Below are positions 14,892 to 15,694 of a stretch of 64,000 nt of DNA, piece by piece. The translations under genes and the position numbers were made by a program. The notes beneath the pieces are model-generated. The model did not search any database. It saw nothing but the letters and a program-made list of their open reading frames with translations, and was not told the DNA's origin. Positions within the stretch are counted from its first letter, which is position 1, and each line of letters starts with the position of its first letter. Origin of the DNA: a virus (lineage: Duplodnaviria > Heunggongvirae > Uroviricota > Caudoviricetes); the IMG/VR virus record IMGVR_UViG_2721755662_000004; one strand, 5' to 3'.

Positions 14892-15010
14892 CACTTACTG
14901 TGGTTGTGAATACGATTGGTATTAGGCTATGCTAACAACATTAGCCTGACTAATTTTGTATTGACTTGATTTTTGTTAAAGAACAGGACGGAGAAGTAAG
15001 GGTACACCCA

Positions 15011-15190
15011 ATGAGCTACGCACTAAAAAAACACCCGCGATTGACTATTCCCCCTCGCGATAAAAGCGTTGTGGCAGCTCCGCGCCCGGCTATCGATGAA
15101 AATTGCACTCATCGTGAGCAGGTGAAAAATGCTTTCGATTTCGGTTTTTCTCGTTACGAGAAGGCAATGGAAGAACTTTCAAAAGTGTAA
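15011..15190 (+). CDS. Putative antitoxin partner of the Doc-like toxin
   Basis: 59-aa ORF ending 18 nt before the Doc-like gene; assignment by position only, no Phd-like motif seen. Confidence 0.35.
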   Translation: MSYALKKHPRLTIPPRDKSVVAAPRPAIDENCTHREQVKNAFDFGFSRYEKAMEELSKV

Positions 15191-15208
15191 TGATGGGTAT
15201 TGTGCTCT

Positions 15209-15694
15209 ATGGCTGAGATTGTTGAAGGAGTGCACTACCTTTCGTTTGATGATCTTACCGAAATTAATCGCCTTTTAATTGAGCTTCAAACACCAGATGA
15301 ACCTGTTAGTGTGCTGAGTGTTGATAATTTAAGTTCTTCTCAGTCTCGTCCCAGCATGGTTCGATGGTATGAACAGACTAATGACATGTTTGTACTGGCA
15401 TCAGTATTGATTGAAAGTCTGATTCAGAATCATCCATTTGCTAATGCAAACAAACGAACAGCTATGATGGCTGGTTATGTCTTCTTGTTGTTGAATGGCT
15501 ATGAGTTAACAGCACCAGGCGATGAAATCGTGGAAATGGCAGAGGGACTGGCCTGCAAAACCTATACTCGAGAAGATCTCGAGAACTGGTTGTGTTATTG
15601 GTCTCGTGCGTATGACAGCCGGGAATTATGTAAAACAGGCGCAACTATTGTTTTGTATGAAACTATCAAGCTTAAAATAGAACAGCAAAACTAA
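15209..15694 (+). CDS. doc: Fic/Doc-family toxin (Doc-like)
   Basis: Motif HPFANANKRTAMMAG fits the Doc/Fic signature HxFx(D/N)(A/G)NKR (P1 Doc has HIFNDANKR). Confidence 0.7.
   Translation: MAEIVEGVHYLSFDDLTEINRLLIELQTPDEPVSVLSVDNLSSSQSRPSMVRWYEQTNDMFVLASVLIESLIQNHPFANANKRTAMMAGYVFLLLNGYELTAPGDEIVEMAEGLACKTYTREDLENWLCYWSRAYDSRELCKTGATIVLYETIKLKIEQQN

Follow-up and report, generated by a model that had tools for sequence, protein, structure and literature searches.

A prophage Doc-family toxin and its small upstream partner, a predicted antitoxin resembling a stand-alone neutralising tail

The closest described relatives of the gene pair considered here include the Phd–Doc type II toxin–antitoxin systems of phage P1 and Salmonella Typhimurium, in which an antitoxin-first bicistronic prophage operon encodes Phd along with Doc, a toxin bearing the motif HxFx(D/N)(A/G)NKR. 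These antitoxins neutralise Doc through a C-terminal segment of ~22 residues, which lacks order in the free state and becomes helical on binding (PMC9207808). In the case of Salmonella, a peptide comprising only Phd residues 52-73 binds Doc with a dissociation constant (Kd) of 73 pM and blocks the phosphorylation of EF-Tu, the phospho-residue being T383 in Salmonella numbering (PMC9207808). The present analysis concerns a pair of genes within a 64,000-nucleotide stretch of DNA (the window; IMG/VR record IMGVR_UViG_2721755662_000004), which is a lambdoid prophage of the Escherichia coli O104:H4 type, the region being 100 % identical to the prophage of O104:H4 strains. The second gene encodes a 161-amino-acid (aa) protein of the Doc family, and the first, a small open reading frame (ORF), encodes a protein of 59 aa. 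Probably, the pair is a two-gene type II Doc cassette whose antitoxin consists of a stand-alone neutralising tail and a short unstructured N-terminus, with no DNA-binding domain. This is the best-supported reading because, according to published work, Doc antitoxins owe their neutralising activity to the tail by itself.

The window pair shares with P1 and Salmonella Phd–Doc its operon organization, its toxin motif and, by prediction, its C-terminal neutralising segment; however, its antitoxin does not have the Phd/YefM N-terminal domain for dimerisation and DNA binding, and thus offers no obvious means of binding an operator or of conditional cooperativity. In addition, its toxin exceeds P1 Doc by 35 aa and is a distant relative. 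The Salmonella Phd employed in the biochemical studies is a canonical 73-aa Phd and lies outside the family of the small ORF. A second group of known systems pairs Doc with AbrB/SpoVT-type partners, as exemplified by the TIGR02609 proteins, Phd–Doc of Enterococcus faecalis (PDB 9VZC) and the TasA–TasB mazE–doc composite. In E. faecalis, Phd residues 52-79 form a bent helix in the Doc groove, and the AbrB-type N-terminal domain binds the operator (PMC13034048). This group contains the closest solved toxin, as well as antitoxin tails of the form ..RYxxA[LM]xxL[AS][KE] that are akin to the tail of the window protein, but its swapped-hairpin DNA-binding domain is entirely missing from the latter. 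The tail is also known to be portable. In PanA of Corynebacterium doosanense, a member of the NetFlax network, a Phd-C element works apart from the Phd N-terminal domain, and the element neutralises the Doc toxin when fused to SUMO alone (PMC10440598). The window protein fits as the tail by itself; whereas the PanA tail is joined to a globular Panacea domain and needs SUMO when isolated, the window protein adds only a 33-residue unstructured segment bearing a conserved motif.

Two further comparisons concern antitoxins that, like the window protein, operate without a DNA-binding domain. PaaA2, from the PaaA2–ParE2 system of an E. coli O157:H7 prophage, is also small and largely disordered, although it is accompanied by a regulator gene, PaaR2, and a ParE toxin, and the window pair has no conserved third gene. 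The class I Fic antitoxins VbhA, FicA and YhfG are upstream partners of ~55–60 aa for toxins of the Fic fold; however, their inhibitory motif is missing from the window protein, and the window toxin is of the Doc kinase type rather than an AMP transferase. Hence, portable neutralising tails and antitoxins lacking a DNA-binding domain (e.g. PaaA2) are already established, as are single-domain antitoxins of other families that amount to the neutralisation domain alone (PMC10440598). What is new is modest, i.e. a variation on Doc systems in which the small partner is undescribed in the searchable literature and is hypothetical in RefSeq and GenBank.

The Doc-family protein and its linkage to the small gene

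As originally predicted from its HPFANANKR motif (residues 75–83), the 161-aa protein is, by its sequence, a member of the Doc family with a kinase-type motif, the match being far above chance; it scores 122.2 bits against TIGR01550 (cut-off 38.65) and 44.5 bits against the Pfam Fic model PF02661 (Fic-DOC; cut-off 24). The annotation of the O104:H4 prophage agrees, listing WP_000818160 as a 'type II toxin-antitoxin system death-on-curing family toxin'. The Doc kinase motif ends in NKR, and AMP-transferring Fic enzymes carry GNGR. Among aligned homologues, the pattern H.F.[DN][AG]NKR is kept in all 26, and the 80 viral loci described below have HPFANANKR in 79 instances and HAFANANKR in one. 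The nearest solved structures are those of E. faecalis Doc (9vzc_A; E 1e-12), to which identity is ~30 %, and P1 Doc (E 1e-4). The protein had also been thought longer than P1 Doc, and it is, at 161 vs 126 aa (PDB 3k33_A). Rather than being peculiar to the window, the surplus is typical of a whole subfamily of ~155–166 aa found in the Enterobacterales and beyond. By alignment, the surplus over P1 Doc is made up of ~9 N-terminal residues, one conserved block (W131-x-R-x-x-D-x-x-x-L-C141) and a variable ~20-aa tail.

The linkage of the two genes is strict in both directions of searching, and the earlier expectation that the small ORF would be conserved next to Doc homologues was borne out. A genome search with the Doc alignment returned 32 loci, 29 of which are gammaproteobacterial (Enterobacterales, Orbales, Pseudomonas and Halomonas). 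In 29 of these 29, the small ORF lies immediately upstream of Doc, its end either overlapping the start of Doc or falling within ~20 nucleotides (nt) of that start; in the window, 18 nt separate the small-ORF stop from the Doc start. Conversely, each of the 80 viral contigs retrieved via the small ORF has an ORF with the Doc motif 3–18 nt downstream of it. Over 24 loci, pairwise identity in one protein correlates with that in the other (r 0.87; Mantel 0/2000). All-against-all clustering of the neighbouring ORFs found no conserved third gene around the pair, and a regulator gene of the kind seen in paaR2–paaA2–parE2 was ruled out on the same grounds. Three loci, namely L024 (Gilliamella), L027 (Proteus penneri) and L029 (Arsenophonus nasoniae), have an intact small ORF beside a Doc gene that is shortened or broken into two ORFs; the reverse case, a decayed small ORF beside an intact Doc, was never seen among the loci examined. 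The toxin thus appears to be the first to decay, which is the order expected of a toxin and its antidote. Overall, the genes are adjacent, co-oriented and strictly co-inherited, and the antitoxin is never lost beside an intact toxin, as is generically the case for type II modules. The three most distant Doc loci, from a cyanobacterium, Sphingomonas and Mesorhizobium, carry antitoxins of the AbrB/SpoVT type instead (TIGR02609, 'doc_partner').

The pair also occurs in Pseudomonas phages Sirocco (L035) and LPPA56 (L036), which are P2-like and other temperate phages, where it directly follows the integrase gene and is annotated as hypothetical. In both, it is situated at the genome end beside a tRNA-Ser fragment, a moron position unlike that in the E. 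coli nin region.

The small protein as a predicted Doc-neutralising tail

The small ORF is a genuine coding gene under purifying selection. Its non-synonymous divergence (dN) is 0.14–0.38 and its synonymous divergence (dS) is saturated, with dN/dS being ~0.1 where computable. The C-terminal half is 2–5 times more constrained than the N-terminal half and has the lowest dN. The longest possible reading of the ORF begins at a TTG at 14966 and would encode 74 aa. However, the true start is the ATG at 15011, because a Shine–Dalgarno sequence stands 8 nt upstream, RefSeq calls the gene from that ATG and conservation over 17 orthologous loci agrees. Across those loci, upstream conservation is limited to a ribosome-binding site of the GAGG type, located as a GAGG-like block at the same distance, and the ATG. 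A word-indexed search recovered 17 clusters of the family, and an exhaustive profile search of 1.84 billion protein representatives gave 37 real clusters ranging from 38 to 95 aa, the longer members having an internal Met at the usual start. The family extends through the Enterobacterales, Orbales, Pseudomonas and Halomonas. Within PHROGs it corresponds to phrog_2208, which is of 'unknown function' (E 3e-42), and WP_000119356 is listed as a 'hypothetical protein' in the O104:H4 prophage. None of the 37 clusters shows a fusion to a known domain, and no member of the family has a DNA-binding domain. The PADLOC library of anti-phage defence systems gave no meaningful match. No paper on the small partner was found in the searchable literature, and the supplements of a Klebsiella survey had no matching sequence.

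The family consensus is M-x-x-A-x-x-K-x-x-R-L-x-IPxRDK-x-x-VA-x-P-x-PA...H-x-x-QV-x-NAF-x-x-GF-x-RYEKA-x-x-ELSKV. When the family alignment is supplied to AlphaFold, the window protein is predicted to form one helix, spanning residues 34–57, with a predicted local distance difference test score (pLDDT) above 90, and residues 1–33 are predicted to be coil devoid of secondary structure (pLDDT 59–71). The latter segment is basic, with an isoelectric point (pI) of 9.6, and contains five prolines; within it, I13, P14 and R16 are each conserved in 90 % or more of a diverse set of 45 family members.

The earlier assessment was that the small protein is unlike Phd. It stands for the N-terminal two thirds, since hidden Markov model (HMM) searches of the small ORF, the check that had been proposed, gave no Pfam or NCBIfam match at E<=0.1 and no folded domain is evident there, but it fails for the C-terminal helix, which resembles tails of the Phd/doc_partner sort. 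The relevant comparisons are several. The partners of the distant Doc loci end in ...RYKVALQKLAE, close to the ...RYEKAMEELSKV of the window protein. When the small-ORF family was compared with 120 TIGR02609 proteins by hhalign, there was a single local alignment, placing residues 33–58 on the C-terminal tail (positions 49–73 of P0176), with a P of 8.8e-5 and a score of 26.8; for 200 column shuffles the score was 9.5 +/- 2.0, with a maximum of 17.7, and none of the 200 reached the observed value. TIGR02609 was also the sole NCBIfam model matched by more than one family member, i.e. by five of 45, all sub-threshold with a best E of 0.027; the window protein itself has no TIGR02609 match. Judged by sequence, which does not speak to binding, helix 34–57 is therefore significantly similar to the tail of AbrB-type Doc partners. 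To Phd proper the likeness is weaker. Aligned without gaps from the C-terminus against the family profile, the C-terminal 22-mers of P1 Phd (its sequence having been confirmed against the PDB) and Salmonella Phd gave z values of 2.8 and 3.1, respectively, and five of the six experimentally defined Salmonella hot spots (F56, M60, H63, L67 and L70) keep their character in the window protein (F42, F46, Y49, M53 and L56); in sequence terms, the helix weakly resembles the Phd C-terminus.

A number of family assignments were ruled out. Membership in Phd/YefM (PF02604) finds no profile match, and residues 1–33 are predicted coil; membership in TIGR02609 likewise finds no profile match, and the AbrB/SpoVT N-terminal domain is missing. 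The possibility that the N-terminal half is a degenerate AbrB domain was rejected on an hhalign score of 9.2 vs 8.0 +/- 1.8 for shuffles. An identity as a VbhA/FicA-type antitoxin was dismissed because the class I Fic inhibitory motif [S/T]xxxE[G/N] is absent from the window protein, and only two non-aligned chance matches to it occur in 58 family members. In the PDB, Phd was not among the matches of the small-ORF profile at E<=10; those obtained, to ribosomal protein S25 and a RES-domain protein (E 0.2–1), are at chance level.

Proposed mode of action and competing readings

By analogy with the P1 and Salmonella toxins (PMC9207808, and Castro-Roa 2013 as cited there), the 161-aa Doc would phosphorylate EF-Tu at Thr382 and so bring translation to a stop. 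The amphipathic helix 34–57 of the antitoxin is predicted to fold into the Doc groove, as the tails of Phd and AbrB-type partners do, and the proline-rich basic residues 1–33 would stay unstructured, forming no DNA-binding domain. Free antitoxin would presumably be short-lived, and the biological role of the pair may be prophage stabilisation or the exclusion of other phages. The original prediction of an unusual antitoxin would thus hold for the architecture, i.e. a tail only and no DNA-binding domain, but not for the mode of neutralisation, which is probably the usual one.

Several observations weigh against a tail-only antitoxin paired with a Doc kinase. The similarity to doc_partner tails spans ~25 residues and has an hhalign probability of only 60 %, and the match to canonical Phd tails is weak, with a shuffle fraction of ~0.003–0.007 after two registers were tried. 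The AlphaFold model of the Doc monomer, while helical, is of low confidence (pLDDT 53; predicted template modelling score, pTM, 0.28), such that the fold and the groove are without structural confirmation. A consensus promoter scan of 14890–15010 found none. The isolated Phd-C element of C. doosanense is inactive unless stabilised, and thus a tail-only antitoxin may need more (PMC10440598). Lastly, the conserved IPxRDK motif is left unexplained by a tail-only model.

This motif underlies a more speculative extension, somewhat improbable as it stands, in which the N-terminal segment h-x-IPxRDK-x-x-VA-x-PRP is a second functional element instead of a passive linker. It might be a plug for the active site or substrate site, with R16-D-K-S-V-V-A as a pseudosubstrate; the EF-Tu segment around Thr382 is GGRTVGAGVVA, which the window heptapeptide loosely recalls. 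Alternatively, it could be a degron or sensor that frees Doc upon phage infection, perhaps in concert with the C-terminal block of Doc. Were there such a second element, the Doc module would be controlled purely post-translationally, with no transcriptional autoregulation, as a prophage-encoded abortive-infection switch.

A different use of the same segment is proposed by the main rival reading, in which the small protein would be a classical antitoxin in full. Besides neutralising Doc, it would fold its basic N-terminus (K6, K7, R10, R16, K18 and R25) into a DNA-binding element such as a beta-ribbon arm, either as a dimer or when bound to Doc, and would thereby repress the operon. The upstream DNA bears directly upon this. 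A candidate sigma-70 promoter (Table 1) precedes the pair, and in a second E. coli allele (L037) both of its hexamers are kept (TTGTAA / TATCCT) and the spacer has diverged. An inverted repeat, AGGCTA...TAGCCT, lies at 14925–14947 near the putative promoter of the window, and L037 has ATCCTAAGGAT near its own. In three Providencia and Morganella loci (L003, L007 and L008), a good promoter resembling TTGACT-17-TATAAT is located ~100 nt before the small ORF with a palindrome between its hexamers, the arms of which vary by locus (TAATGAAAG/CTTTCATTA vs TAATGTA../..TACATTA), as if both sides had changed. Such repeats near putative promoters and between -35 and -10 elements speak for the classical reading, and the strong conservation of h-x-I-P-x-R-D-K, together with the pI of 9.6 of residues 1–33, is also in its favour. 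However, the upstream DNA and its palindromes are unconserved even between E. coli alleles encoding proteins of ~90 % identity, and alignments reveal no conserved operator or promoter beyond the ribosome-binding site, which is unexpected if a conserved motif were to recognise an operator there. Moreover, the segment has only 33 residues, five of them proline, is coil according to AlphaFold, and is unlike AbrB by hhalign or any Pfam or NCBIfam model. Repression of the operon by the small protein is accordingly judged unlikely. Since the antitoxin has no DNA-binding domain, the module probably lacks classical antitoxin-mediated autorepression, and the lack of upstream conservation is consistent with this.

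A further alternative questions the toxin rather than the antitoxin, holding that the longer Doc subfamily is not an EF-Tu kinase toxin but acts on another substrate, has another activity or is non-toxic, in which case the pair would be a different type of phage accessory module. The window protein is indeed distant from the characterised Docs, as seen in its E of 1e-4 to P1 Doc and its modest identity to the E. faecalis protein; it has the subfamily-specific C-terminal block and tail, and Fic-fold enzymes are diverse in their chemistry (PMC10440598). Yet the Doc-kinase NKR motif is invariant, and is not GNGR, the operon has the typical antitoxin-first order with a 3–18 nt spacer, and Doc has decayed with its partner kept at three loci, all of which make this alternative distinctly unlikely. 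The small ORF might instead encode an accessory or coupling peptide, for instance a translational leader, a chaperone or a specificity factor, with Doc being controlled by the helix-turn-helix (HTH) protein at 15745–16062 or a host factor. This would accommodate the lack of any above-threshold match between the small protein and antitoxin families, as well as a binding to Doc that is only predicted, but it is highly improbable. The HTH gene keeps its own RelE-like partner in cassette-free prophages and is absent from other Doc loci; the small ORF, whose tail matches Doc-partner tails, is the one gene with an invariable link to Doc; and loci with a decayed Doc retain the small ORF while the reverse is never seen.

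The favoured reading, a tail-only Doc antitoxin, does not overturn current understanding. It does assign a predicted function to a catalogued but unannotated phage family, phrog_2208, and would add to the known systems a natural Doc-neutralising tail that has neither a globular nor a DNA-binding domain. As such, it supports modular antitoxin evolution, in which interchangeable domains become attached to a linear neutralising motif, and raises the question of how a Doc module is balanced when there is no autoregulation. In addition, a natural E. coli Doc inhibitor of ~25 residues, as predicted here, has bearing on work on peptide inhibitors of Doc.

The cassette and its genomic surroundings

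The features of the pair and its immediate borders are compiled in Table 1. Identical 20-nt repeats bracket the pair exactly and delimit a cassette of 841 bp (14870–15710). In L034, the one genome in which an empty site was aligned in detail, the sequences on either side align at 97.4 % and 99.4 % around an exact 841-bp gap, and one copy of the repeat is present. A synthetic empty-site query, required to be at least 80 % covered in one place, matched 168 complete E. coli genomes. Of 5426 complete genomes of the species, 125 (~2 %) carry the cassette, chromosomally in every case, and in some of these 125 homology starts exactly at the small-ORF ATG and the downstream neighbours differ. The cassette behaves as a prophage moron, and its borders suggest gain or loss via recombination at the repeated terminator. 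Sub-threshold Rfam matches to rsmX (31 bits) and isrK (31 bits) fall on the two terminator-hairpin regions at 15643–15732 and 14810–14891; in all likelihood they are fortuitous and due to the hairpins.

Table 1. Features of the Doc-family gene pair and its borders, in window coordinates
Feature	Position	Strand	Remarks
Left 20-nt direct repeat AACCCGCTTCGGCGGGTTTT	14870..14889	+	Hairpin terminator ending the hokD transcript; left cassette edge
Candidate sigma-70 promoter TTGTGA-18 nt-TATGCT	14904..14933	+	Putative and weak, 8/12 matches; below scan threshold
Shine–Dalgarno sequence AAGGG	14998..15002	+	8 nt before small-ORF ATG; read from sequence
Predicted antitoxin, 59 aa, WP_000119356, phrog_2208	15011..15190	+	ATG start to stop
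N-terminal motif I13-P-P-R16-D-K18	15047..15064	+	Within predicted unstructured residues 1–33
C-terminal helix 34–57 (HREQVKNAFDFGFSRYEKAMEELS), predicted Doc-neutralising element	15110..15181	+	AlphaFold, hhalign, lowest dN
Doc-family toxin, 161 aa, WP_000818160, phrog_577	15209..15694	+	ATG start to stop
Doc-type Fic motif H75-P-F-A-N-A-N-K-R83	15431..15457	+	Read from sequence
Terminator hairpin after Doc	15709..15730	+	Holds right repeat copy, 15711–15730

The pair sits in the nin region of the prophage, flanked on one side by hokD/sok and the replication genes and on the other by an HTH/RelE-like pair, an antirepressor gene and then ninB through Q. Thus, the region has three toxin–antitoxin loci, of three kinds, within ~2 kb. 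Directly upstream of the cassette is a type I hok/sok locus at 14477–14801, recognized by an Rfam sok match of 110 bits and the hokD coding sequence. Beyond the cassette, a RelE/ParE-family toxin gene (16055–16425, - strand) adjoins the HTH antitoxin gene (15745–16062). Relative to the intact 123-aa allele in L034, the toxin gene has a 1-nt deletion at 16379/16380; its frame breaks past residue 15 (MRIFKNAWFERFARK), and the HTH antitoxin is apparently orphaned. At this locus RefSeq gives only an 85-aa fragment, with no pseudogene flag. Finally, at 16516–16714, Rfam reports isrK (74 bits), c4-a1b1 targets (47 bits) and the C4 antisense RNA (75 bits), marking an antisense control region like immI of P1/P7 ahead of the ORF6N/P22-AR antirepressor gene at 16768–17433.

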